From assembly GCA_002269645.1 (NCBI GenBank), contig NIVC01004968.1, forward strand, positions 1 to 29,852: 29,852 bases of DNA, in the 5' to 3' direction. Shown here piece after piece: positions 7,259 to 29,852 of the stretch. Under the pieces are notes generated by a model. It ran no database searches. It was given only the letters and a program-made list of their open reading frames with translations, and was not told the origin of the DNA. The position numbers and the translations under genes were made by a program. Each line of letters begins with the position of its first letter. Positions within the stretch are counted from its first letter, which is position 1. Source of the DNA: Macrostomum lignano (lineage: Eukaryota).

Positions 7259-7780
7259 TCACAGCCTTTTGCTGTCGCTAGCAGCAGCTGGCACTTGCCG
7301 TTTCCATTTCCATTGCTGCCTCTTGTTGCCAGGCTTACAACTGGCCAGAGTGAGTTTATTACCTGGCGAAGCTTCCATACAGAGGCCTCTTAAAGCGTGA
7401 TAAATGCTGCCATCGGATCGATAGCGCCACTCCTGATTGCCGCGGCCGCCGTGACAATTGTAGATGATGACATTGTCACCGCCTGGAAAGTCTACGCAGC
7501 CTTCGTCCCGCCGAATTTCGCCGTTCTTAGACAGCATCCAGAACTGATTGCCGCCCTGGCCGTGACAGGGCCAGAGCTTCACGATGGTCCTGCCGGACTC
7601 GTGATGACTCACTGGCGAGTCAATGCAGTACGGCACCGCGGCGTTCTCGATGGGACCTCGGGCCAGAGCGTGTCTGGGCAGGAACAGTTCGGGGTAGACG
7701 GTGTCCAAATACCACTGGAAACTGCGGCAGCCAAGTCGCTGGCGGAGTGCTTTGCGTTCAGACACGTCGCCGTAATTTCC
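7259..7780 (-). CDS. GALNT: Polypeptide N-acetylgalactosaminyltransferase, last exon (end of catalytic domain plus ricin-B lectin domain)
   Basis: Phase-0 acceptor tttacgccAG|GGA; [32 protein letters not shown], then ricin repeats [42 protein letters not shown]; TGA at 7261-7259. Confidence 0.95.
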
Positions 7781-7867
7781 CTGGCGTAAATGGGATTTTG
7801 GAGATTCTTTTTAATTTAAACTAATTGCAGTTAAGACAAACAAGATAAGCCAGGGGTAGATGATAAT

Positions 7868-8218
7868 GATTGGATCTGAGTAGGGATCGATGGGATCAAA
7901 GTAGGAATCGATGGGATCAGAGTAGGGATCCATGGGATCAGAGTAGGGATCCATGGGATCAGAGTAGGGATCCATGGGATCAGAGTAGGGATCCATGGGA
8001 TCAGAGTAGGGATCAATGGGATCAGAGTAGGGATCAATGGGATCAGAGTAGGGATCAATGGGATCAGAGTAGGGATCCATGGGAACAGAGTATGGATTAA
8101 TCGGATCAGAGTATGGATTGATAGGATCAGAGTATGGATCAATCGGATCAGAGTATGGATTGATAGGATCAGAGTATGGATCAATCGGATCAGAGTATGG
8201 ATTGATAGGATCAGAGAT
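7868..8218. repeat. 21-bp minisatellite (GATCAGAGTAGGGATCCATGG)n, about 16 copies; right part alternates two variants (42-bp dimer)
   Basis: Period 21 at 7921/7942. ORFs 7811-8288 are repeat translations. Confidence 0.96.
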
Positions 8219-8678
8219 GAGGATTCAAGTAAAGATGTATTTCGCAAATATAAATCTGTTGAAAATCCTTTTGGCCTTGATAATTTGATGTTAAGCTAAA
8301 AATGATAAAATTATTAAAGCCAGACATAAACAAACGAAACAAACCGGTTTTGACTAGTTAAAGAATTCGAGAAAGCTTAGCAAATAAAATAAAAGATCAA
8401 AAAAACACATGATAATACGCCTAACTTGAATCTCAAGCCGGTTATAATAGAATTTAGCAGCCGAAACAGCGTGCATTAATAGCATTAATGGCTATGACAT
8501 GTCTCAACGTGCGCAAGTGGCGGTGTTACAACAAATAAGCTCTTTCGCGCGCATCTACTAGCTATGGAAATGTTATTATTTATCTGAGACAAATATAGAT
8601 CCAGGCATTTGCTAAAATTTGCACTGATTTTAAATCGACAACATTTAGTAAATTGAATGAAAAATTTCTATACTAAAC

Positions 8679-9655
8679 CAGCTACAGAGAGGGCGCCAGC
8701 TACAGAGAGGGCGCCAGCTACAGAGAGGAGGCGCCAGCTACAGAGGGGAGGCGCCAGCTACAGAGGGTAGGCGCCAGTTACAGAGGGGAGGCGCCAGCTA
8801 CAGAGGGGGCGCCAGCTACAGAGGGGCGCCAGCTACAGAGGCGGCGCCAGCTACAGAGGGGAGGCGCCAGCTACAGAGGGGGCGCCAGCTACAGAGGGGC
8901 GCCAGCTACAGAGGCGGCGCCAGCTACAGAGGGGAGGCGCCAGCTACAGAGAGGAGGCGCCAACTACAGAGGGGGCGCCAGCTACAGAGGGGGCGCCAGC
9001 TACAGAGGGGAGGCGCCAGCTACAGAGAGGAGGCGCCAGCTACAGAGGGGGCGCCAGCTACAGAGGGGGCGCCAGCTACAGAGGGGGTGCCAGCTACAGA
9101 GAGGCGCCAGCTACAGAGGGGGCGCCAGCTACAGAGAGGCGCTAGCTACAGAGGGGGCGCCAGCTACAGAGGGAACGCCAGTGAGGGGGCGGCAGCTACA
9201 AAGGGGGCGCCAGCTACAGAGAGGCGCCAGCTACAGGGGCGCCAGCTACAGAGAGGCGCCAGCTACAGAGGGGGCGCCAGCTACAGAGGGAACGCCAGCT
9301 TCAGAGGGGGCGGCAGCTACAGAGGCGGCGCCAGCTACAGAGGGGAGGCGCCAGCTACAGAGGGGAGGCGCCAGCTACAGAGGGGGCGGCAGCTACAGAG
9401 GCGGCGCCAGCTACAGAGGGGAGGCGCCAGCTACAGAGGGGAGGCGCCAGCTACAGAGGGAACGCCAGCTTCAGAGGGGGCGGCAGCTACAAAGGGGGCG
9501 CCAGCTACAGAGAGGCGCCAGCTACAGAGGGGGCGCCAGCTACAGAGAGGCGCCAGCTAAAGAGGGGGCGCCAGCTACAGAGGGAACGCCAGCTTCAGAG
9601 GGGGCGGCAGCTACAAAGGGGGCGCCAGCTACAGAGGGGCGCCAGCTACAGAGGG
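8679..9655. repeat. GC-rich 17-21-bp minisatellite (GGCGCCAGCTACAGAGGG(G/AG))n, intronic
   Basis: About 50 copies of CCAGCTACAGAG with variable G-run length. Confidence 0.97.
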
Positions 9656-9736
9656 CCTTGCTGAATATAAAGACAAAACTGAAGCTGAAATTTGCAGTCA
9701 AAGCATTATGCTCAGGCAATGAGATAATTTGCCTAC

Positions 9737-10369
9737 CTTTCCCCCTACTCTCTCGTAGTAGATAGTCGCGTACTCGTCCATCCACACGTCAGCCAGTCGC
9801 ACAGAATTCTTTTTCAACACGCTGCCGGTGCCCCAACTGTAGGGCGAGCGCTTCCGAAAGATGTGACCAACAATGGAGCAGGGCACAATCTCCAGGGTGC
9901 CGCCGCACATCCAAATTTTGAAGCTAATCTCTAAATTCTCTCCGCCCCAGATGTCGAATCCGGGATCGTAGCTGCCCAGATGGGCAAAGTATTTCCTGGA
10001 AATGGAGAACAGTCCGCCAGCCATGGTGGGGCTGCGAACCGGATCGATCCTACTTAGCCGGCGCTTCCTGTCGCGCTCGGGCACAACGTGCCAATTGAAT
10101 TGTAAATTCCAGTCGAATCCGCCAACACTCATCGAGTCTAAATTAGTTGCCGTGGACATTGCCAAGGTGCTATCGCTGATCACTTCGATAGTTGGCGTCA
10201 CAACGTTTGTCCAGTTGAGCGCGATCCGATGCAGCAGCGGCTCGAGCCAGCCTGTGGGGCATTCGCAATGCGAATCCAGGAATGTCAGCACAGTGCCTTC
10301 GGCTTTGCGGGCTCCCATTAACCTGGCGCGGATTAGGCCTTCGCGCTTGGCTGCCCGAAGGATTCGAAC
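9737..10369 (-). CDS. GALNT: GALNT exon, catalytic GT-A and Gal/GalNAc-T region
   Basis: Acceptor atcactcAG|GTT, donor AAG|GTAGGC; 633 nt, phase 0/0. Motifs REGLIRARL, FLDSHCEC (DxH), SPTMAGGLF, WGGENLEISFKIWMCGG, GHIFRKRSPY. Confidence 0.96.
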
Positions 10370-10454
10370 CTGAGTGATGCAAATTAGGCTACTTTTAGTA
10401 GTGTGAGAAGAATTATATTCAACTTTACATTGTATAACTTTACAACTACTTAAC

Positions 10455-10620
10455 TTGAAGGTCAGGGGTTCGATTCTTGATCCCACTAGAACAATTTGTG
10501 TCCTTGAGCAACACACTGAACTCTGCATTGCTTCAGTTCACCCAGCTGTAAAATGGATGCCAGCATTAGCTGAGGTAATTAAAGGTGTGCGTGGCGACCC
10601 CCCACAGTCCTTGGACTGAA
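10455..10620 (+). mobile_element. tRNA-derived SINE fragment with CORE-like central domain, 5' truncated
   Basis: B-box-like GGTTCGATTC at 10467-10476. It is followed by TGTGTCCTTGAGCAACACACT...CTTCAGTTCACCCAGCTGTAAAATGG (10497-10556), resembling the CORE-SINE consensus TGTGTGACCTTGGGCAAGTCACT...CTCAGTTTCCTCATCTGTAAAATGG. No A box seen. Confidence 0.55.
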
Positions 10621-15308: not shown

Positions 15309-15684
15309 TTAGCGGCTTTGCACTGAGCGTCGCGATTATCGCCCAACTCTCTATCCAGCGAGATCATATCGCTGGCGTATTGATTAAATGCGTTTCTCTG
15401 CCAGCCTTCGTCGTATTTTCTTCGTTCAGTGGAGGACAGCTTGTTCTTGTCAATGTTGACAGGGCGGCCGCCTTCGCCGTGCTCGTGTCCCGGGTTGGGA
15501 TAGGCGGCCCACAGCTCTCGAATATGGGCCGGCGGTGCTCGGCGAACCCGTCTGGTGACAATGTGCTGGCCGAGTTTGAGTCATCTGGATGGAGCTGCGG
15601 CTTCTGCTGCTGTGCTTGTTGATGACGATGAGCCTGGAGCATGTCCCGGTGGTGCACCCGGTTGAATATGATCTCGTCGCGTAC
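15309..15684 (-). CDS. GALNT: GALNT stem/pre-catalytic exon; 3' part certain, 5' boundary uncertain (in-frame TGA at 15583-15581)
   Basis: Donor AA|GTAAGT at 15309; phase 2 joins the next exon (K-YPGP). Conserved HGEGGRPV...KYDEGWQRNAFNQYASDMISLDRELGDNRDAQCK resembles gly-5/pgant9-type enzymes. Best acceptor tcccctgccAG at 15684; alternatives at 15565 and 15551. Confidence 0.8.
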
Positions 15685-15769
15685 CTGGCAGGGGATACCA
15701 AGTGATTAATTATATATGTATACATTATAATCCTGATAGTACTTAGTCAAAGTAGTTCAAAGCGAAATT

Positions 15770-16620: not shown

Positions 16621-16808
16621 CAATTCCCAAGTAATGTGTTAAGGATGATGTTCTTCTGGAGGTGTACATACTCCCGGCTACGCATGAGGCGTACATCTGT
16701 GTATTCGATTCTCATGGCAATCAAAAAATTCTAGATTTAAACATTTTTCGATCAAATAGAGAACGATTTAAGCGCACACGATTTTCAGCTAGTTAGGTCG
16801 AAGTGCAG

Positions 16809-16879
16809 TCCGGAAAAATTGCCAACGAGGAGCGAAGCGAGCGAAGCGAGCGTAGCTCCTCGTTGGCAATTTTTTCGGA
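16809..16879. other. Long hairpin: 25-bp arms (one mismatch) around a GAAGCGAGCGAAGCGAGCGTA loop
   Basis: TCCGGAAAAATTGCCAACGAGGAGC (16809-16833) versus GCTCCTCGTTGGCAATTTTTTCGGA (16855-16879). Confidence 0.92.
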
Positions 16880-17060
16880 CAAACGAGACCGAGATAAGAT
16901 GTCCCGGAGACTCCCCCAACGTAAAATCAACGTTTTAGAAAATAAAATTGATGCAGAGTTAAAACCACTTGAGATGAAACCATGTGTGACCCCTCTATGG
17001 ACGTAAAACATTTAGGGCTACAAGATGTGTGACGTGAAAGTTCCATAGCAACGCGTCTTG

Positions 17061-17074
17061 GTTGCCATGGCAAC
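17061..17074. promoter_or_regulatory. Perfect RFX X-box-type palindrome GTTGCCATGGCAAC
   Basis: 14-bp palindrome matching the RFX consensus; related GTTCCATAGCAAC at 17040-17052. Function not shown. Confidence 0.4.
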
Positions 17075-17293
17075 AAAAAAGTGACTTTTTTTAGACCCGT
17101 CCAAATCTTGAATCTCAAAAAATAAGGATTCACAATATGGAGTCAAAAATTGATTGAACCCAACTTTTGGCGAATTTTCAGACCTTCAAGACACTGATTG
17201 GTTATTTTCCGCTAAATGCTTACCTTGATAGGTAATTCTGTAAAAGTGTGTTTTTTAAGTGTCAAAAAATGCGCATTTTTATCAACTTTCAAC

Positions 17294-17341
17294 TGACGCA
17301 GCTCAAAGGTCGCGCGTCAGCGCGACCTTTGAGCTGCGTCA
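17294..17341. other. Perfect hairpin: 22-bp stem, 4-nt loop
   Basis: TGACGCAGCTCAAAGGTCGCGC-GTCA-GCGCGACCTTTGAGCTGCGTCA. Confidence 0.95.
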
Positions 17342-17892
17342 TTCTAACAATGGCACCTGGGACTCTTACATGACGCACGACTTTAACCAAGATACTCACT
17401 TTAACTGTACATTCGCACCTGTTAATTACATTCGAATATTCGACGGGTAGGTATTCGAACCGAAATAAAGGAAATTCAACCTTGTTGCGAGACTCTAAAA
17501 AGTACATGAATGCGGTCATTTAGGTAAGATCTACATGTTTATAATACATTTTGAGCCGTTTCGTTGCACTGACTCTGAGCCATACACTGCTAAAGTCGAT
17601 AAACGTGATTTAGGCTATTTTTATGTATTTTTCATGATACAAATGTACAAAAAATAAGAAACGACGACATGCTAGGAAAATCAGACTTTTTAGGCAAGGT
17701 GCACAACTAAATTGCGCACAATATGTATATTTTGAAATTTCGTCTTAGTTTATTGAAGTCGCTGCCGGTACAGAAATGTACTTTAACGACGGTACGGGGG
17801 GCTTGCATATCGAACATACTTTTTAGCCTGTAACTTTTGAGCGGATTACCGGAGCGCGACGCGCTTGGTGTCATTGAACTACATTTTAGATG

Positions 17893-18955
17893 TACTTTAA
17901 TTTGAATGTATGTTCGCTGTCATTGCACGATGCGTTGTACACCTCAGGTCAGGTCACGTGACTTGCTGGAAATGAAATAATGACTTTGTACCTATACTAA
18001 GGATAGGTGAAGCGTAAGAATGAACCAAAATTTGTACTTATTAGAAACACCTAGATGACTACTGTCAGAAAAAATGATATTCACGTCTGTCAGTTGCAAA
18101 ATTTTGTTATAATTGACTTTTAAAATCGAAAAACGTGATTTTGTGCAAAAACAACCTATATGAGCACACATAGGGTGAAAAATTTATTGATTTTCGCTAT
18201 GAGGTTCTTAGCTTCCAAGAGCACTATTGTGCCCAGTAAACACGTACAGATGACTGCTATCTTCGTTAGTGTGCGAAAATTCGTATTTTTACGCTAATAA
18301 CATTTACCGAATTACGAGGTTCCGGTGTTATGCGTTTTTTTGCTATATTTCACGCTGCCATTTATTAACGATGCTACGCCAGGCCTTCAGTGTGGTGTCA
18401 ATAGTTAGCATTTAAAAAGTGCTTTAATTTGAGTGTATGTTCGCTGGCATTGCACGATGCGTTGTACACCTCAGGCCAGGTCACGTGACTTGCTGGAAAT
18501 GAAATAATGACTTTGTACCTATACTAAGGATAGGTGAAGCATAAGAATGACCCATATTAGTACTTATTAGAAACATCTAGATGAATACTCTCAGAAAAAG
18601 TGACATTCACGTCTGTCAGTTGCAAAAAAAATTTTTAATTGACTCTCAAAATCGAAAAACGTGATTTTGTGCAAAAACAACCCATTTGAGCACTACATAG
18701 GGCGGAAAATATATTAATTTTCGCTATGAGGTTCTTAGCTTCCAAGAGCACTATTGTGCCCAGTAAACACGTACAGATGACTGCCATCTTCGTTAGTGTG
18801 CGAAAATTCGTATTTTGACGCTATTAACATTTTACCGAATTACGAGGTTCCGGTACTATGCGTTTTTTTGCTATATTTCACGCTGCCATTTATTAACTAT
18901 CCTACGCCAGGCCTTCAGTGTAGTGTCAATAAATAGCATTTAGCAAGTGCTTTAA
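17893..18955. repeat. Direct tandem duplication of a ~528-bp unit (2 copies, roughly 90% identical by eye)
   Basis: CTTTAA junction motif at 17895, 18422 and 18950; shared blocks such as GTCACGTGACTTGCTGGAAATGAAATAATGACTTTGTACC. Confidence 0.93.
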
Positions 18956-20448
18956 GATGACATCATGCGCATTGCGTTGCGTAAAAGTGTGGGTCCACAG
19001 TTTCGTAACAAGTTAAAATGACCTGATTTCGCAAAAATCTTTAAAACAAAAAATACCAAATAGGTAACTAAAAAGCCTTTTGAAACTGAATAAAAAATGC
19101 ACATAAAAGTGCTATTTTGTAACGTAAAAAGTCTTGCGTCCTGCAAAAATCTTCTATGGTGACTTTTTGGAGCCGTGAAGTGTAAAAACGTGCGCATTTT
19201 TAAAGCTGTTGAACTTACTTTTTGAGGTATATTTTGAAAATAGGCATTTTATAAATTGTATAACAAAATTTAATTGAAGAAAGCAATAAGGTAAAATAGA
19301 ATTCGAAATTATTTAATTTTGAAATAATTAAACTGTACATTTCAGTCGTTCTGTTCCTTATAATTTCTACAAAAATTTAAATTTAAATCGGTTATGTTAA
19401 CAGTAGTTTATTGCTGTAGGACAAATTTGACCCCAAATTTTCAAAGCAACTTATCTAAGCAAACGCTATCTAAATCTGAAATATTTTCAAGCTTCAATCT
19501 GTAGCTATAATATTCGGTTTTGTTACGCTATTTATTCGTATCCTACTACATTATATATAATTATTGTACAATATATTATATTCTACAAGTACAAGTTTTA
19601 ATTGTAATATATTCAATTGTTATCAGTTTTACACTGTAAGTGTAAGCTTCAAATTTTATTTGAAATATAACTGAAGTATAGTACTTTAATATTATTTTAT
19701 AGCTAATTAATTGTATTCTGCCAAATATTTACGTTTTTTTTCTCTGCTTTGCTTTTTGCTCCATATTTTTATAAATTATAGTCATATTTACATATATCTT
19801 TTAAAAGTACTCATCCTTTCACATTTTATTTTGTAGTTATCAGTCAAATTTAACTTGAATTTTCCTTTTGTTTGCATAATTTTGACTTAAGACTTTAGTT
19901 TTGAAGTAAGTATTCTTTTTATTTCTTCATATGTTTAGCATAGTACAAATATCTGTAGTACTCTGCTTAATGGTAGAAGTTTGTGGACACTTTTTATAAA
20001 TTCTGCTCAATTTATTATAAATTTAGCATTTTTGCTAGACAATATATACATGCCAATGCTCCTTATATCAAGCAATGCTTGAAAGTGCTAGACACTTAGT
20101 TTATGGTGAATTTTTACCAAGGGATGTTTTTTTGCTGATATAGAATTCCTAGAAGCATGTACAAAAACATGGAATATGCCTGAAAAAACTCTAGAAAATA
20201 TGCACTAAATCCAAGAAAAAATGTTGAAAGCACAAAAACTACATGGCACACACCGCCTATATGCCAGTATATTATGCTGCAGCATATTAATCCACAATCC
20301 AGTAGCAGTGCTAGTGTTCGTAGTTTAACTAAATTTGCCACCAGAAAAGAGTTGAGTTAACTTGGTAAAGAGTAGCATGTTTTCTGTGTTTAGCTAATTA
20401 GTTTCTTTATCATTCTGAAATATTTACTAACATGTTTATTTAGACAGG

Positions 20449-20527
20449 ATGGGCAACGACAAAAACAGCATCAAGGACAACACTAGCATTAACAAGGATA
20501 CAAGTGCTTCTTCTGTTGCTGCCAATA
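20449..20527 (+). CDS. Predicted first coding exon of the Helitron RepHel gene
   Basis: ATG at 20449, preceded by TACTAAC (20425-20431) and AG acceptors; MGNDKNSIKDNTSINKDTSASSVAAN; donor A|GTAAGT, phase 1 matches exon 2. Confidence 0.6.
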
Positions 20528-20734
20528 GTAAGTTTTGTACATTTGTTGCAACTTGCAGGTGATAGGTGCTACTTTCAGGAATAGTTTCAAAGCAATCCTA
20601 CCTTTATTATTAATATTCACACCTTAGGAAACCAGCTTTTACTAGCATTCTTGGCTGCCCATTTGGGCAACAGACAAACTAAAAAGTTCCTGCACTACAC
20701 AATTTATTTACCAAACAATAAATCTCAATTGTTC

Positions 20735-21030
20735 ACACTATAACTCACACTGAATAGTTCACAGGTAATTCTGTAAAAAAGTGTTTTTCAGATGTCTAAA
20801 AATGTGAATTTTTCAAACTCTTAACTGACGCAGCTCAAATCAATAGTTCACACTCAATAGTTTAGATTGAATAGTTTCGCCTGAATAGTTTTGACAGACA
20901 GAATAATTTCAACTGAATAGTTACAACTGAATAGTTTAGACTTAATAATCTTGACTGAGTAGTTTTGACTGAATAGTGTGAACTCAATAGTTTCGACTGA
21001 GTAGTTTCGACTGAATAGTTTCGACAAAGG
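20735..21030. repeat. Degenerate minisatellite of (ACT)GAATAGTT(T) words inside RepHel intron 1
   Basis: More than 12 AATAGTT/AGTAGTT words, interrupted by a 77-bp insert at 20763-20839. Confidence 0.8.
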
Positions 21031-21242
21031 GAATAAATTCAATTGGAATCTGACCTTGTTTGACAGATCATTAAAATAATTATAGAAACTCTATTTTCGA
21101 ATGTTTAACACCCTTAGAATTTGAGCAGATTTAAGAAATTTTGACCACTGTATAATCAGTGCAAAATCTGCAATAGTTTAGAAAAAACGCTATCAAAATT
21201 GATCAAGAATGGCACGCTCTAGAGCGAAATAGATGGACAGAC

Positions 21243-21265
21243 ATATATATATATATATATATATA
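21243..21265. repeat. (AT)n microsatellite preceded by GGACAGAC
   Basis: Read directly. Confidence 0.9.
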
Positions 21266-21306
21266 GGTAGATTTATAAATTTCTTTTTTACTGTGACTTT
21301 AAACAG

Positions 21307-21678
21307 GTGCGAAAAAGTGCGGACGGCCGAAGAAGAAAAACTGGAGCCGCTCCAAGAATAATATTAAAGTTGCTGCTGTCGGTGATTTAACTGCTGGCGA
21401 AGAACAGATTCAAGAGCCAGATGTACAACCGGAAGCTGCTGCTGCCTCTTCTATTGCCGCTGCTGGGACTAAAGCTGGTGCTTCTGCTGATGCTGCTGCT
21501 AAAACTGAGTCTGTGATTAAGCTGGACGAGGCTGGTCTGGCTGCCCTGCTAGCTGAACATGATGCTGCTCTGGCCGACGCTCTGGCTGCTTCGGAATACC
21601 CCGTGGTCGAAGGTGATGCTGAAGTGCCCAATTCTGGTGCTGCTTACAATGAGCAACTTATAGGCTACTTGAGTGCTG
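21307..21678 (+). CDS. Predicted exon 2 of RepHel: GRP/AT-hook-like motif, Ala-rich linker, UIM-like motif
   Basis: Acceptor tttaaacAG|GT, donor G|GTGAGA; 372 nt, phase 1/1, stop-free: SAKKCGRPKKKNWSRSK...EHDAALADALAASE...GYLSA. Splices in frame to exon 3 (G+AT = D of DETG). Confidence 0.78.
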
Positions 21679-21863
21679 GTGAGAGTTTTATTTTTTATTG
21701 AATTTCTATGCATAGTACAAGTTAATTTTCTTTCTTACATCTGACTTTGCTTGCGAATATTGAAAATTAGATTTTAGTGTTTACGACTTGTGCAAAATAC
21801 AATTAATGCTCAATTCCTTAAAATTATCATACCTCACTGTTTAAGAGTTGTATTCTTTTACAG

Positions 21864-24800
21864 ATGAAACAGGTGCTACTGCAATGGATTTTGCCGAAGG
21901 TCATGTAACTGCTGCTGTACAAGTCCAACCTGTATGGGTTCCTTTTTCTTCGTGTCGCGTTGAGAATGTACGAGGTGACGGCAACTGTTTTTTCACGGCC
22001 ATATTGAGACAATTACAAGAACTGCCAGGTTTTTCCGCCTATCAATCGCTAAGCGTAGAAGATTTTCGAGATGCGGTTGCTGCAGAATTCGAGCAATGGG
22101 TGCATCGCGATGTCAATAATCAGGAAAGAATTATGCAAACAGGACTGAATTGGGAAAAAGTGCGCGACGATACAAGGCGTCCCCGTATGTACGTGCCATG
22201 CGGAGTTCCAGAACTAATTGGTGAACTGTTGCGGCTAGAAGTGTTTATTTATCAGTCAAACATGCTTAATCTAGCGCGGCCTGGCCATTATTCCCGACCG
22301 AATATTGGAGAACGTTTGGCTACTATTCGATTGTTGTTTAATCCTGGTAGTCAACACTACGAAATCGTTCGTGTCAATGATTTGGAAGTTAATGAAGCAA
22401 GCTCAGTTCGGCCGACTGGCCAAGGAGATTTGAGCGCCAAGAATGTGGAAATGCCCCCTCTCAACGAGAATGTTCATGTTGTCGAAGATCCTGTTGTAAT
22501 GATGCCACCTCCAGCTCCACCAATGACGCCTTTTGAAAAGGTTGCAGACTGGACCCGAGTTCAAAGTAGGCATTGGAAGGGACGTTGTAGAAATCAAGCA
22601 AAGTCCTTGGAAAATAATACGAGTTTGTTTGCGCATCCGAATTCATATGAAGTGCTTCGGGATCGGAACAACTCTGTCTGGAATTGGAATGTCGATCTTG
22701 ACGCGGAGGATAGCGCAGAGTCAGTTGAAATTGAGCATGTGTCAGAGTCAGTTAAAAGTGATCGTGTGTCAGAGTCCGTGCCATCAAATGTTCCGCGGCG
22801 CAGTCGGCGTAAAAAGGATGTTGGGAAGGCAAGTTGCGCTACGCGTCGGAGTAGTCGACTGAGCGCTAAAGCAAACACATTAGAGTCTGTGTCTGTTGCA
22901 GCCTCTAGTGTATCTGGTCAGAGCTTATTGAGAAGAAGCAGTCGCACTCGGAGAGCACCATGTTGCAGTTGCATCGGTTGTGGCGACTCAGTTTCGGCGG
23001 TTTCAAGCGTTTCTTGCCATTTGGAAAAAGGAAGAGGTCGAGAAAAGAAGAGCGACGTTGTACCAAGTGCTCCTACTCGTCGCAGCGAGCGTTTGAAAAA
23101 CCAGCAGCAAGTGGTCAACTATGCAAATTCTTTACCACGGAAACAGAGATTGACAAACGCAGAAAATCATATCTGCGAACCCGTTCGATCGTCGCCTAGG
23201 AAGACGGCACCTTTGCAGCAGGAGCAGCAAGATAAACGTCAGTCTGATAATATTCCAGCTACTTCTACGTATTCATCACCACGAAAGACACGTGCTACTC
23301 AGGAGAAGCCTGATGAAGCGATCCGTTCGTCACCCAGAAAGCGGCCTACAATGGAGCAGCAGCCAGCTAAAGAAAATGTTCCGCAGAGCAGCACTTCAGA
23401 AGAGAGCGCTCAAGATGCTCCAATTGTTGAAGATGAAATCGGAGATCCTAATCTGCCAAAGTGCCTTCGCAATCCGTTCACAGACCAGTTCAAAAAGATG
23501 AGGCAAGACTTTTTCAATGAAAACATAACAAAAGTATCACATTTGAAACAGTGCTACGTGTGTAGGGAAAAGTTTCCTGGAAAATATTTTAGCATCGATT
23601 CTGAAGACATGTGCGATCGTTGTTTCAGAGATGACAATGAGCCGAAATCGTTTAGCCAAGAAAACAATGCGATTCCGATGTTGGAGCAGCCAGAAGATTT
23701 GCAAGATTTGAGTGTAGCAGAGCAAATGTTGATTTCGCCAGTTTTGTCGGTTATTGTTGTGGTACAAATTTTTCCCCAAAAGCAAACAAAATCGAGAGGA
23801 CACGGAATCATGTTGCCTCAAGATCAGTCGCACGTTTTGCGAGAGCTGCCAAGACGATCTCTGCCAGTTGTTTTAATGTACGACGAAAGAGCCCGTGTTC
23901 AGCCTGGAGAAGCGCAAAGCGGCACAATGAACAATTTGCGAGTTCGACGCGACAAAGTGACTAATGCGATGCGCTATTTAATGGCAAACAACAAGTACTT
24001 TAGACAGTATCAGGTTTCAATGAATAATGATGCGTTGCTACATCTGCCTGAAGATGGTTATGCTCATCAAGTAGAAGGTATGATTGTCGAAATGCAGTCT
24101 GACAATGAAGTGAATTTCGAGGCGGCACAGCAAGAAGGCGGCTCAGCCAGAGCTGAGCGATTGCAGCAACAAGTAGAAAAAAATGCGGACGAGACGAACG
24201 AGCTCGAGGAAACAATTAGTTCGCTGTTGGAGACTCCTTTGCGTCGATTGGAATCGGCAGTACGAGACAAATTTTTGAGTGAAAAATTGAAATGGCCAGC
24301 AAGAAGCAACGAGCCGGTAAACGAATTTCAGGATGAAGGATATTTTACATTGGCTTATCCTCATCTCTTTCCGGATGGAGCAGGAGATTATAGTACGCCA
24401 CGTAATTTTGGACTAAGTTTGGGCGACTATGCAAAGCATTTGATGCAATTCCGGTGTCCAAGATTTCGTACCGATTTGCGGTTTAAATTTTACATTGAAA
24501 ATATGGTGATGCGTTGGAGGGCGCTGGAAGTTGGTCGCGTGTTTGTACACGACAACAAGTATGCTGGATTAAGTGCCAAGGAAATGATTGAAGCACTAAA
24601 TGACCCGGCAGTATTGGCTAGCGTGTCAGTTCGAGCATCAGATTTGCGAGGCACAAGCGCTTATTGGCAGAGTAAAGGACGGCAATTGGAAGCCATGATT
24701 CGAACGCTTGGTGTTCCTCATTTTTTCGTGACACTATCGGCAGCAGATGTACATTGGCCAGAGTTGCAGCATGCCTGGGGAATCGATGCAGAGCAATATG

Positions 24801-27800
24801 AAAGCAATGTAGAACTAAGAGCAGAAATGTTGTCAAAGTTGCAAAAAGATCCCGGAATGGCAGACACTGTGTTTTGGTTGCGATTTGAAACATGTTTGAA
24901 ACGTTTTTTGGTCGAGCACTGGAAAGTAAACGATTATTGGTTTCGCATAGAATATCAGAGTCGCGGAAGTCCACACGTTCACGGTTGCATTTGGATGCCA
25001 GATGGTGTTGATGTGACATCGAATACATTGAATGCAGAAGAATTGACGAGCTTTGTTGACAAGTACATCTGTAGTTGGAATTTGGCCATGGACGAATCGG
25101 ATTATGGAAATCAAGTTTTGAATGGCAGTTTAGCAGGTCAAGGTCATCCAGCTCAACTGAAACCGGAAGAGATTGAAAATGACAAGCAAGATTTGCAGTT
25201 AATTTCGCATTTGACAGAGAGGCACACTATTTGCAGTAAAAAGTGCTTGCGAACAGTAAAAGGCAAACAAGAGTGCCGATTCAAGTATCCGCGCGAGCCG
25301 CAGGAAAAGACTGTTGCAAAGCGAGTATCCCGTTTAAATTGGCAAGTTGAGACGCAGCGCAACGACGAGCGAATGATTTCTCACAGTCCGCAGTTGCTGT
25401 GCATGTGGAGAGCCAATGTCGATGTTCAAATGATTTCGTCCGTGAAGAATTTGATTCGCTATTTGATCAAGTATGCGACAAAAAGCGAAAAGGAGTCGGA
25501 TTATATGGCGGAGCTGACAAAGCGTCTTCATAAGGAGTTGGAAGATAATGCAGAACAGAATGCCGATAACAATTTTCAGCGTAGCAACACTGCAAGGCGT
25601 GTTGTACAACAACACTTGATGGCGCAAGTTGGAGCGCGTGATTATTCGGCGCAAGAGGCAATGCATTTGCTATTGCAGACGTCAATGTACAAGGGTTCGC
25701 GAGAATTTGTTTTTGTTCAGACTGGCGAAACCCGCGCAGTGGAGGAAAAGGGTGTTTGCAGGAATAGTTGCGACAAGTATTCAAAGCGTGCAAAGAATTT
25801 GGAAAATGTAACAATGTTTCGTTTCTTTTCCGACTACTGTCTCAGCCCTAATGGGAGGTGCACAAAAAGGCCGAAACAAGTAGTTTTGCTAATCAGTCCA
25901 TTTTTTCGACCGAATGAGCAATCAGACGAAAGACGCGAAGGCTATTATCGGCAGCAGGTTTTGTTGTACAGTTGTTGGCGAAATGAGCGAGAAGCCAAAG
26001 GTTTGCACACAAGCTGGCAGCAAGCGTACGAAGCCATGCCTGCTGAGAATCGATGCGAGCTGCAGCTGCCCAATTTGGACGATTTGCGCAACGACGAAGC
26101 TGACGAAGAAGTCGAAGCAGTTGCGGAGCTACCCGAAATGACCAACGCAAATGCGCAATCTGCTGCTCAGCCAACTTATGAGCACGAAGAGCAAGAAGAT
26201 TGGATGGTTGCAGTGGGGGCACTTCATCGCGAGAGAAATCTATTGGCCTGTCCAGAAGATCAATTGCCAAAGCCGCCAGAAAATTTTGACTGGAGCGCAG
26301 CTAGTGGCGGCCAGTTTCCAACGGTTGGAGAAGCAAAGGCGTTTTTAAGTAGCGACCTAAAACTTGGCGCAAGAGAGGTCGCTGACATGCCGATAAACAG
26401 TGTTGAATCGCTTAATGTTCGGCAGCGAGAAATGTACAACCTAATTGAAAGTCATTTGCAGCTTTCAAGACTAGCCGAAGAAAACCAAGGCGAAAAGCCG
26501 GAGCCTCTCAAAGCAATTTTGTATGGTAGCGCTGGAACTGGAAAAAGCTACTTGATTTCTACATTGCGTCGGTTGATTGGAGAATCAAGATGCAGAATTA
26601 TGGCATCAACAGGCGTAGCCGCTTTCAATATTGCAGGCGAAACTTTGCACTCGGCTTTGAAATTGAATGTAAATTTTAGTGCTGGTGTTGGCAAGAAATC
26701 CCTAATGGAGATGCAAGAGCAGTGGAAAGATGTGCGCTACATTTTTATTGACGAATTTAGCATGCTTGGCCAAAGGTTACTCCGTAAGGTGGATGCTCGT
26801 TTGCGCGAATTGTTTCCAGAACACAGTAAACAGAGTTTTGGTGGTCGATCTGTAATCCTAATTGGCGACGTGTTTCAATTGCCTCCAGTTTTGGACACGC
26901 AACTGTACGTTTACAATCCAAATCAAAAGAAGCACGATATATTGAAATCTGAAGGCTATAAATTGTACATGGAGTTCAAAAAGGTTGTGCATCTGACAGA
27001 ACAAGTCCGACAAGCAAACGATACGGAATTCGCCCAGTTGTTGGATAAACTTCGCGAAGGCAAGGCCGACGAAGCCTGCTGGAATTCGTTGATGAACAAT
27101 TGTCGCGTCTATGCTCCCGACCTTTTGCCTGAAGGTTTCCAAAGCGGGTGTACATTTTTATATCACACTAACGAGGATGTGAGAAATCGCAACTACATGC
27201 TATTGGGAAAGATGGTTTCCGAATTGAATCCTGTGCGGCAAATTAACGCAATTTGTAAAGGAGACGAAGCAAAATTGTGTGGCAAAAAGAAGGAACATAA
27301 AAAATCGGATACGAATCTGGAGAAGCGACTCTATTTGTGTATTGGTGCTCGAGTAATGCTAACTAGAAATCTGTCAGTACGCAATGGACTTGTGAATGGA
27401 TCAGTTGGAACTGTACGAGGAATTTGCTACGCTCCTGGAAGGCAATCACCAAAGGATTGGCCAGATTGTATTTGGGTTGAATTTGACAATTATTCTGGCC
27501 CAGCAATGGGGGCAATTGTACAAGATAATCGTGCAATTCGTGTAGTGCCAATTCTGTCAGTAACGAATGAAAAGTTTAAAGGAGGAGCCCAATTGTCGCG
27601 TCAACAATTTCCACTACGATTGGCTTGGGCTAGTACGATTCACAAGAGCCAAGGACTTACAATTCCAAAAGCGTACGTGGCGTTTAGCAAAGGAGGCGCC
27701 AGGAAAGCTATTCCAGCTGGATTATTTTATACTGCGGTGAGTAGAGTTCGTGCATTTGCAGATTTGCGAGTATCAAGTTGCGATTACAACAATTTCGTGA

Positions 27801-27892
27801 GCCTTTTTTCTGCACAAAAAGTGCAGACGCAGTTGCATGAGCAAAAGCGTTTGCTGAGAATGTGCTCATCCGCGAATTCTGATAGCCGCTAA
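21864..27892 (+). CDS. Helitron Rep-helicase main exon: OTU protease, basic disordered linker, Cys motif, HUH Rep, PIF1 (SF1B) helicase
   Basis: Acceptor attcttttacAG|AT. OTU GDGNCFF (Cys at 21986) and HY (His at 22355); CYVC..CDRC; EGYFTLAYPHLFPDGAGD; FFVTLSAAD; RGSPHVH (HUH, 24974-24982); YLIKYATK (25460-25483); Walker A GSAGTGKS (26525); DEFSML; GDVFQLPPV; QVRQ; TIHKSQGLT. No stop in 6 kb. Confidence 0.95.
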
Positions 27893-27905
27893 CTTGCTAT
27901 TCTAA

Positions 27906-29852
27906 AGTCGGCAACTATTTAGTCAGCAACTATCCATCCAGTCAGCATCCGTCCAGTCAGCAGCCGTCAGTCAGCAACAATCCAGTCAGCAACCATCCAG
28001 TCAGCAACCATCCAGTCAGCAAACATCCATCCAGTCAGCAACCATTCGTCCAGTCAGCATCCATCCAGTCAGCAACCATCCAGTCAGCAACCATCCAGTC
28101 AGCATCCGTCCAGTCAGCAGCCATCCAGTCAGCAACCGTCCATCCAGTCAGCAACAATCCAGTCAGCAATCATCCAGTCAGCAACCATCCAGTCACAACC
28201 ATCCAGTCAGCAGTCATCCAGTCAGCAACCATCCGTCCAGTCAGCAACCATCCGTCCAGTCAGCAATCATCCGTCCAGTCAGCGACCATCCAGTCGGCAA
28301 CCATCCAGTCACAACCATACGTCCAGTCAGCAACCATCCAGTCAGCAACCATCCAGTCAGCAACCATCCATCCATTCAGCAACCATCCAGTCAGCAACCA
28401 TCCAGTCAGCAACCATCCAGTCAGCAACCATTCGTCCAGCAACCATCCATCCAGTCAGCAACAATCCAGTCAGCAACCATCCAGTCAGCAAACATCCATC
28501 CAGTCAGCAACCATTCGTCCAGTCAGCATCCATCCAGTCAGCAACCATCCAGTCAGCAACCATCCAGTCAGCATCCGTCCAGTCAGCAGCCATCCAGTCA
28601 GCAACCGTCCATCCAGTCAGCAACAATCCAGTCAGCAATCATCCAGTCAGCAACCATCCAGTCACAACCATCCAGTCAGCAGTCATCCAGTCAGCAACCA
28701 TCCAGTCAGCAACCATCCGTCCAGTCAGCAATCATCCGTCCAGTCAGCGACCATCCAGTCGGCAACCATCCAGTCACAACCATACGTCCAGTCAGCAACC
28801 ATCCAGTCAGCAACCATCCAGTCAGCAACCATCCATCCATTCAGCAACCATCCAGTCAGCAACCATCCAGTCAGCAACCATCCAGTCAGCAACCATTCGT
28901 CCAGCAACCATCCATCCAGTCAGCAACAATCCAGTCAGCAACCATCCAGTCAGCAACCATCCAGTCAGCAACCATCCATCCAGTCAGCAACCATCCAGTC
29001 AGCAGCCATCCTGTCAGCAGCCATCCAGTCAAGCCGTCCAGTCAGCAGCCATCCAGTCAGCAACCGTCCATCCAGTCAGCACAATCCAGTCAGCGACCAT
29101 CCAGTCAGCAACCATCCAGTCAGCAACCATCCAGTCAACAACAGTCCATCCAGTCAGCAAACATCCATCATCAGCACCATCCAGTCAACAACAGTCCATC
29201 CAGTCAGAACCATCCATCCAGTCAGCAACAATCCAGTCACAACCATACATCCAGTCAGCAACCATCCAGTCAGCAACCATCCGTCCAGTCAGCAACCATC
29301 CAGTCAGCAGCCATCCTGTCAGCAGCATCCAGTCAGCAGCCATCCAGTCAGCAACCGTCCATCCAGTCAGCACCATCAGTCAACAACCATCCAGTCAGCG
29401 ACCATCCAGTCAGCAACCATCCAGTCAGCAACCATCCAGTCAGCAAACATCCATCCAGTCAGCAACCATCCAGTCAACAACAGTCCATCAAGTCAGCAAC
29501 CAATCATCCAGCGCAACAATCCAGTCAGCAACAATCCAGTCAGCAACATCAGTCACAACCATACATCCAGTCAGCAACCATCCAGTCAGCAACCGTCCAT
29601 CCAGTCAGCAACAATCCAGTCAGCACAATCCAGTCAGCAACCGTCCATCCAGTCAGCAACATCCAGTCAGCAACCATCCATCCAGTCAGCACCGTCAGTC
29701 AACAACCATCCAGTCAGCGACCATCCAGTCAGCAACATCCAGTCAGCAACATCCATGTCAAACAGCAGTCCATCCAGTCAGCAACATCCATCCAGTCAGC
29801 AACCATCCAGTCAAACAACAGTCCATCCAGTCAGCACCACCATCCAGTCAGC
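27906..29852. repeat. 15-bp minisatellite (CATCCAGTCAGCAAC)n with 19-bp variants, over 100 copies, running off the window
   Basis: Read directly; the WLLTG-type ORFs are repeat translations. Confidence 0.98.

Follow-up and report, generated by a model that had tools for sequence, protein, structure and literature searches.

In the window analysed here (the whole 29,852-bp stretch of the Macrostomum lignano contig NIVC01004968.1), exons of a polypeptide GalNAc-transferase with Glycos_transf_2 and ricin-B lectin domains lie on the reverse strand at 7259-10537 and 15364-15705, and tandem repeats occupy the introns of this gene, among them a 47-bp array with 76 copies. The sequence from position 16794 onwards belongs to a Helitron of the HLE2/Helentron type, designated family A, which extends past the right edge of the window; complete copies are 13.2 and 15.4 kb in length. 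The features of the element and of the protein that it encodes are listed in Table 1.

Table 1. Features of the family A element in the window
Feature	Position	Strand	Basis
HLE2/Helentron-type Helitron, family A	16794..29852	+	copy boundaries, empty site, lengths
Left 13-bp subterminal inverted repeat	16795..16807	+	compared with other copies
First coding exon (ATG 20449, inferred)	20444..20527	+	GT..AG joints in three runs, open spliced frame
Second coding exon	21307..21678	+	GT..AG joints, open spliced frame
KKCGRPKKK at start of second exon	21312-21338	+	
Last exon: OTU, linker, Zn finger/DUF6570, Rep, Pif1	21864..27892	+	
OTU-fold cysteine protease	21929..22381	+	AlphaFold2 model, structure matches
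Ser/Arg/Pro/Glu-rich linker, predicted disordered	22382..23449	+	AlphaFold2 pLDDT, composition
Motif 1, PRRSRRKK	22793..22816	+	RRSRR shared with family B
Motif 2, RRSSRLSAK, HMGN/Dsup-type core	22844..22870	+	
Motif 3, RRSSRTRRAP, then CCSCIGC; family A-specific	22931..22960	+	
Motif 4, RRSERLK	23078..23098	+	
Three SSPRK words (23189, 23273, 23327)	23189..23341	+	
CxxC..CxxC putative Zn finger and DUF6570	23552..24019	+	
Rep (HUH) nuclease: Helitron_like_N, YWFRIEYQSRGSPHVHG, YLIKYATK	24428..25483	+	Pfam
Pif1-family helicase (PIF1, Pif1_2B, UvrD_C_2)	26516..27745	+	Pfam
Tandem array, unit ~15 bp, part of the element's 3′ region	27906..29852	+	

Family A is an HLE2 by its domain and end features. 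The Rep (HUH) nuclease and the Pif1 helicase are encoded within one ORF, and the element has (sub)terminal inverted repeats and a 3′ stem-loop: in other copies, the partner of the 13-bp repeat lies 27 bp from the 3′ end and is followed by a small hairpin (5 of 5 3′ ends). Comparison of one filled site with two homologous sites lacking the element revealed insertion at T^T with no target duplication, while a second empty-site case gave no resolved junction. Subterminal inverted repeats, a 3′ hairpin, and T^T insertion without duplication are those described for HLE2 elements (PMC11417382, PMC4067079), which family A further resembles in a captured OTU upstream of RepHel and in DUF6570, a domain described as nearly exclusive to HLE2 (PMC11417382/PMC4067079). 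Unlike the Helentron Helitrons described in the same reports, however, family A has a 70-aa C-terminal tail in which Pfam detects no endonuclease, its target preference is apparently longer (CTAGT^T), and its linker carries motifs of which the HLE2/Helentron passages of these reports make no mention. It shares only 22-25% identity with the other RepHel group of the same genome.

CTAGT precedes 7 of 7 5′ junctions examined, one of which is that of the window (16789-16794; junction copies, L034, L036, L038, L042, L045, L069, L105-L109, and L126-L127), and the element's own 3′ end is CTAGT too (5 of 5). At one empty site the sequence is CTAGT^T, and thus family A seems to use a 5-6-bp target that matches its end, the target reported for HLE2 being TT, which is shorter than CTAGT (PMC11417382/PMC4067079); the second empty site (L118) reads CTAGA, with a mismatching 3′ flank. 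The family is very young: the 110-residue motif zone is 100% identical in 46 of 77 genome matches, and 37 of the 40 scored matches of element copies reach full score at 100% identity. The 15-bp array is several kb long and is carried within each complete copy; its depth is very high in the runs guessed to be RNA, and many copies are found at contig ends. Two strong hairpins are present near the 5′ end (16808-16880, with 31-bp arms, and 17294-17341, with perfect 22-bp arms), and the rearranged copies C3095, C954, and C1189 have breaks at or near them. The 5′ non-coding region also contains a direct duplication of ~560 bp with 91% identity (17866-18955). In G000 C3095 and C1189 (L031-L035), the element occurs in tandem, partly deleted arrays, which could reflect either rolling-circle replication or misassembly.

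The GT..AG joints 20527/21307 and 21678/21864 are present in contigs of three runs (from three studies), which are only guessed to be RNA, none being recorded as such, and are absent from a fourth. The spliced frame is open for 2159 aa, and single 6.5-kb contigs span the linker motifs in spliced form, which places these motifs, between the OTU domain and Rep, in one transcript. The unspliced ORF (21845-27892) comprises 2015 codons, with the four motifs at residues 317-418. The KKCGRPKKK word is presumably AT-hook-like, and the SSPRK words of the linker are taken here to be SPKK-like DNA-binding or CDK sites. The domain at the start of the last exon is a predicted OTU deubiquitinase by fold and by its catalytic Cys/His: the best structural matches of the AlphaFold2 model are all OTU domains (top Z 12.6, rmsd 2.9, 135 aligned), the Cys in GDGNCFF (21974-21994) and the His (22355) are conserved across three families, and Pfam identifies OTU (E = 6.5e-6) in the protein of a sister family, family B. 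In an AlphaFold2 prediction for the first 526 residues, based on a six-row alignment, only residues 1-153 fold with confidence; pLDDT is <50 over model residues 154-506, except at two single positions, and ~30 at every motif. The linker contains 9.9% Arg and 14.4% Ser.

All four arginine-rich peptides that the earlier note had listed were found in one frame of ORF 21845-27892, with CCSCIGC following motif 3. In the linker (355 aa), RRSxR occurs four times, compared with a shuffle mean of 0.045, and RRSxRL twice, compared with 0.002; these counts were reached in none of 20000 shuffles, and the one match with at most one mismatch from RRSARLSAK was equalled in 0 of 5000 shuffles. These figures overstate the significance because the patterns were picked after the sequence had been seen, and the comparison between families served as the independent test.

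Conservation across element copies, which had been proposed as a check, says nothing in this case because the copies are 100% identical; diverged families were therefore fetched from the same genome. Identity between families A and B is 67% for Rep, 31% for OTU, and 24-37% for the linker, and at the third positions of shared four-fold codons they differ at 164 of 264 sites in the core (62%) and 27 of 38 in the linker (71%), so their silent sites are near saturation. Against this background, TRRSSRLSAKA, which includes motif 2, is identical at 11 of 11 residues, with 7 of the 11 codons silently different. It is the only identical run of at least nine residues before residue 600, and permuting the linker identity columns gave a run of at least 11 in 150 of 100000 cases. 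RRSRR of motif 1 (3 of 5 codons silently different) and PTRRSERL of motif 4 (5 of 8) are likewise identical. Since these three segments were kept with different codons, they are selected as protein. Motif 4 was placed inconsistently by the aligners because family A has ~45 extra residues ahead of it, and was treated as homologous on the basis of order and the exact eight-residue match. The codons of the two families were read with a degenerate genome-wide DNA pattern, used only for this purpose; its count (130 matches versus 50 in the control) is not clean because MGN also admits Ser codons.

RRSSRL and RRSERL are both present in 10 of 12 family-B stretches, the other two being one with a replaced 5′ part and one yielding no N-terminal ORF. 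Two family-B copies carry a tandem duplication of a 106-aa module, in which 0 of 14 core positions have changed, as compared with 22/106 and 16/106 positions overall and 5/15 and 4/14 other Arg/Lys (P = 0.03 and 0.09); the two copies probably represent one event and thus weak evidence. Of the SSPRK words, two are exact in family B and one is SPTK/SPTKR, and RSSPRK is identical between the families twice. The cluster proposed in the earlier note thus holds for three of its four members, which show protein-level selection in family B, and not for motif 3, in the place of which family B has RRRKRVVKP and no cysteine cluster.

Absence from close homologues had been named as an observation that would speak against the motifs, and the outcome differs between families. 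They are present in family B. For family C, from the same genome and with 56-57% Rep identity and an OTU, the scan covered the main ORF, where RRSxRL is absent from 4 of 4 stretches; one RRSxRL word occurs upstream in a closed frame of 17 codons. The deep conservation of the motifs rests on one pair of families. The motifs are a real, selected feature.

Among 156 further relatives, 45 have at least 100 residues before the core, and the motif is absent from 42 of these, indicating that HLE2 transposition does not need it. The remaining three, distant relatives with 28-37% identity in the core, contain RRSARIAA and RRSTRL (P0027), RKSARIA twice (P0070), and RKSSRIA (P0019). The pattern R[RK][ST]xR[LIV], one of seven patterns tried, matches five times in the 45 N-termini, compared with 0.37 expected and 0 of 300 local shuffles, and these five are the sole matches in 166,377 residues of 160 relatives. 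In the same N-termini, the strict RRSxRL has one match (17 of 300 shuffles, not significant) and RRSxR two (99 of 300). A search for close relatives of P0027 and P0070 found none with >32% identity.

Motif 2 contains the RRS[AS]R core of HMGN/Dsup-type binders, in which three arginines are essential and L/I comes next (PMC12487698, PMC13347269); it lies within a region predicted, from a shallow alignment, to be disordered, and is kept between families A and B against a diverging background. By cryo-EM, tardigrade Dsup (PPRRSSRLT) and HMGN2 (RRSAR) are reported to bind to the nucleosome's acidic patch with the arginine at the fifth position as the anchor (PMC12487698). The part common to the three conserved motifs, R-R-S-x-R, is the one resolved on the patch for Dsup (RRSSR) and HMGN2 (RRSAR). 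RRSSRL of family A equals the Dsup segment, and hence the substitution from the HMGN core noted earlier is the residue that Dsup has, which bears out the description of RRSSRLSAK as HMGN-type. With respect to the HMGN core RRSARLSA, 7 of 8 residues are identical, among them all three arginines and the serine for which a role as a phospho-switch has been proposed. This is a likeness of motif and not homology: unlike the vertebrate HMGNs, the family A protein scores 8 bits (E = 7.8) with Pfam HMG14_17, below the 23.5 cut-off, and canonical HMGNs are described as vertebrate-only (PMC12487698). The likeness is most simply explained by convergence. A PDB sequence search with the motif zone gave four chance-level matches (E at least 0.58), and a host donor of the zone was not found among 77 matches at E of at most 10, the non-element ones having E values of at least 0.05 and mostly containing stops.

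Two further proposals for this zone were rejected. Motif 3 had been likened to a CENP-C-type motif, in which the anchor R8 is followed by Y16 and W17, i.e. Tyr-Trp 8-9 residues on (PMC10606924); no aromatic residue follows RRSSRTRRAP, and the motif is not kept in family B. A zinc site in CCSCIGC was dismissed in view of the missing cysteines in that family, and no role for this cysteine cluster is supported.

Dsup is the closest parallel in sequence to motif 2 (RRSSRLTS in Dsup, RRSSRL being identical) and is likewise an invertebrate protein whose motif lies in a disordered region, with basic DNA-binding stretches nearby; the report on its structure called it the only non-vertebrate case at that time (PMC12487698). 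However, Dsup is described there as a small genome-protective chromatin protein for which binding was shown, whereas here several putative motifs lie in a transposase of 2159 aa. In yeast Dot5, RRSARIAT is reported to need the same three arginines (PMC13347269). Dot5 resembles family A as an enzyme with an appended motif of acidic-patch type, and the relative P0027 has RRSARIAA, but Dot5, a host peroxidase, has a single motif, and the family A transposase has several. Foamy virus Gag, KSHV LANA, CMV IE1, and MLV p12 offer a functional analogy, that of a genomic parasite keeping its DNA or integration machinery on chromatin by means of an arginine anchor (PMC12125541, PMC9040877, PMC10606924); these tethers differ in sequence and are described on structural or episome proteins rather than in a transposase chain. 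Viral arginine-anchor tethers are reported to steer integration (PMC12125541, PMC9040877).

With modest confidence, based on sequence likeness and conservation, we consider that the linker RRSxR(L) motifs probably tether this rolling-circle transposase to the acidic patch in the manner of HMGN and Dsup. The motifs would grip the H2A-H2B acidic patch and thereby tether the transposase to nucleosomes; by extension from the Dsup and HMGN2 structures (PMC12487698), Arg1 or Arg2 would be expected to contact H2A E56/H2B E113, and Arg5 to occupy the E61/D90/E92 pocket as the anchor. The host H2A keeps E56, E61, E64, D90, E91, and E92, and the host H2B keeps the equivalent of E113. The SPRK words and the N-terminal GRP word, acting on DNA, may reinforce two or three of the motifs and so give avid, sequence-independent chromatin binding. 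If the RRS serine were phosphorylated, this binding could be lost, in line with the switch proposed for HMGN. Such a tether might hold the enzyme and the rolling-circle intermediate on chromatin during the target search, and possibly allow the OTU domain to reach ubiquitylated histones. As insertion is apparently sequence-directed (CTAGT^T), target choice need not depend on nucleosomes. Likeness of sequence is said not to guarantee acidic-patch contacts (PMC10606924). A complex prediction for a 32-aa segment with motif 2 and the host H2A-H2B gave a score of 0.03 and a mark of 0.34, in a run that used neither alignments nor controls, and weighs neither for nor against binding; AlphaFold 3 is reported to fail on HMGN2 (PMC12487698).

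It is also possible, if somewhat unlikely, that the motifs serve as signals for nuclear import and/or as a phospho-regulated tract that binds DNA independently of sequence, and that their HMGN likeness is incidental. A nuclear enzyme of 2159 aa needs an NLS, basic clusters are available (RRSRRKK here, RRRKR and AKKRR in family B), conservation is just as strong for the SSPRK words, and RRS fits basophilic kinase sites; motif 1 could indeed serve as an NLS as well. RRSSRL, however, does not fit the classical NLS consensus K-K/R-x-K/R, for which the invariant Arg5 and Leu6 are unneeded, and in the duplicated module of family B the NLS-like RRRKR decayed to DRQQKR, whereas the RRSxR cores stayed. 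Docking on another acidic partner in place of nucleosomes, be it a histone chaperone, a host factor of repair or replication, or acidic segments within the protein itself, is quite improbable in our view. Acidic blocks do border the basic zone, at residues 271-300 and 511-540 (net charge -6), and the conserved WNVDLDA adjoins one of them; yet there is no candidate partner, and the exact match to the nucleosome-binding register needs no extra assumption. WNVDLDA (22685-22705), common to families A and B and located just before the acidic block in the linker, is itself a possible further short docking motif.

Chance low-complexity words, common to the families only through descent or an exchange of DNA, would be in keeping with the Arg- and Ser-rich composition of the linker, the lack of conservation of motif 3, and the lack of motifs in family C. 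This explanation is very improbable and already largely refuted by the shuffle and permutation tests, and silent differences are as frequent within the motifs as outside them, an argument against recent exchange of DNA.

Both the motif and the class of element are known; among the open-access papers listed by the searches, judged by titles and abstract openings, none reported a nucleosome-gripping motif in a transposase. If the acidic-patch tether is real, a DNA transposon would be added to the few HMGN-like binders known outside vertebrates (Dsup and Dot5) and would have converged with the viral acidic-patch tethers. We found no answer in the papers retrieved to how Helitron transposases reach DNA in chromatin or why HLE2 elements keep capturing deubiquitinases, and a nine-residue motif with known critical arginines makes both questions testable by standard nucleosome assays.

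The second question is touched by the domain content of the relatives. P0019, P0027, and P0070 each carry a deubiquitinase domain (OTU, USP, and OTU, respectively). Among the 41 of 45 relatives scanned with Pfam, at differing thresholds, the motif is present in 3 of 8 with a ubiquitin/SUMO(-like) protease versus 0 of 33 without one (Fisher 0.005; 0.016 when length-weighted; post hoc and uncorrected for kinship). Counter-examples to the pairing are P0123, with an OTU-like word, P0014, with a C-terminal OTU, and family C. By analogy with host DUB modules, HLE2 Helitrons might repeatedly have built a one-chain nucleosome deubiquitinase, in which an HMGN-type anchor would park the captured OTU/USP on the acidic patch and strip H2A/H2B ubiquitin at donor or target chromatin; we regard this as unlikely.

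Four classes of ubiquitin/SUMO protease (OTU, USP, Josephin, and Ulp1) were observed upstream of RepHel in HLE2 relatives, and other relatives carry THAP or STPR domains; these observations come from P0019, P0027, P0046, P0055, P0060, P0070, P0104, and P0112. P0027 contains four AT-hook-like words besides its motifs. In addition, an integrase-like ORF, by eye Maverick/Polinton-like, was identified upstream of a 5′-truncated family-B copy (L055:82-1400, G000 C172).
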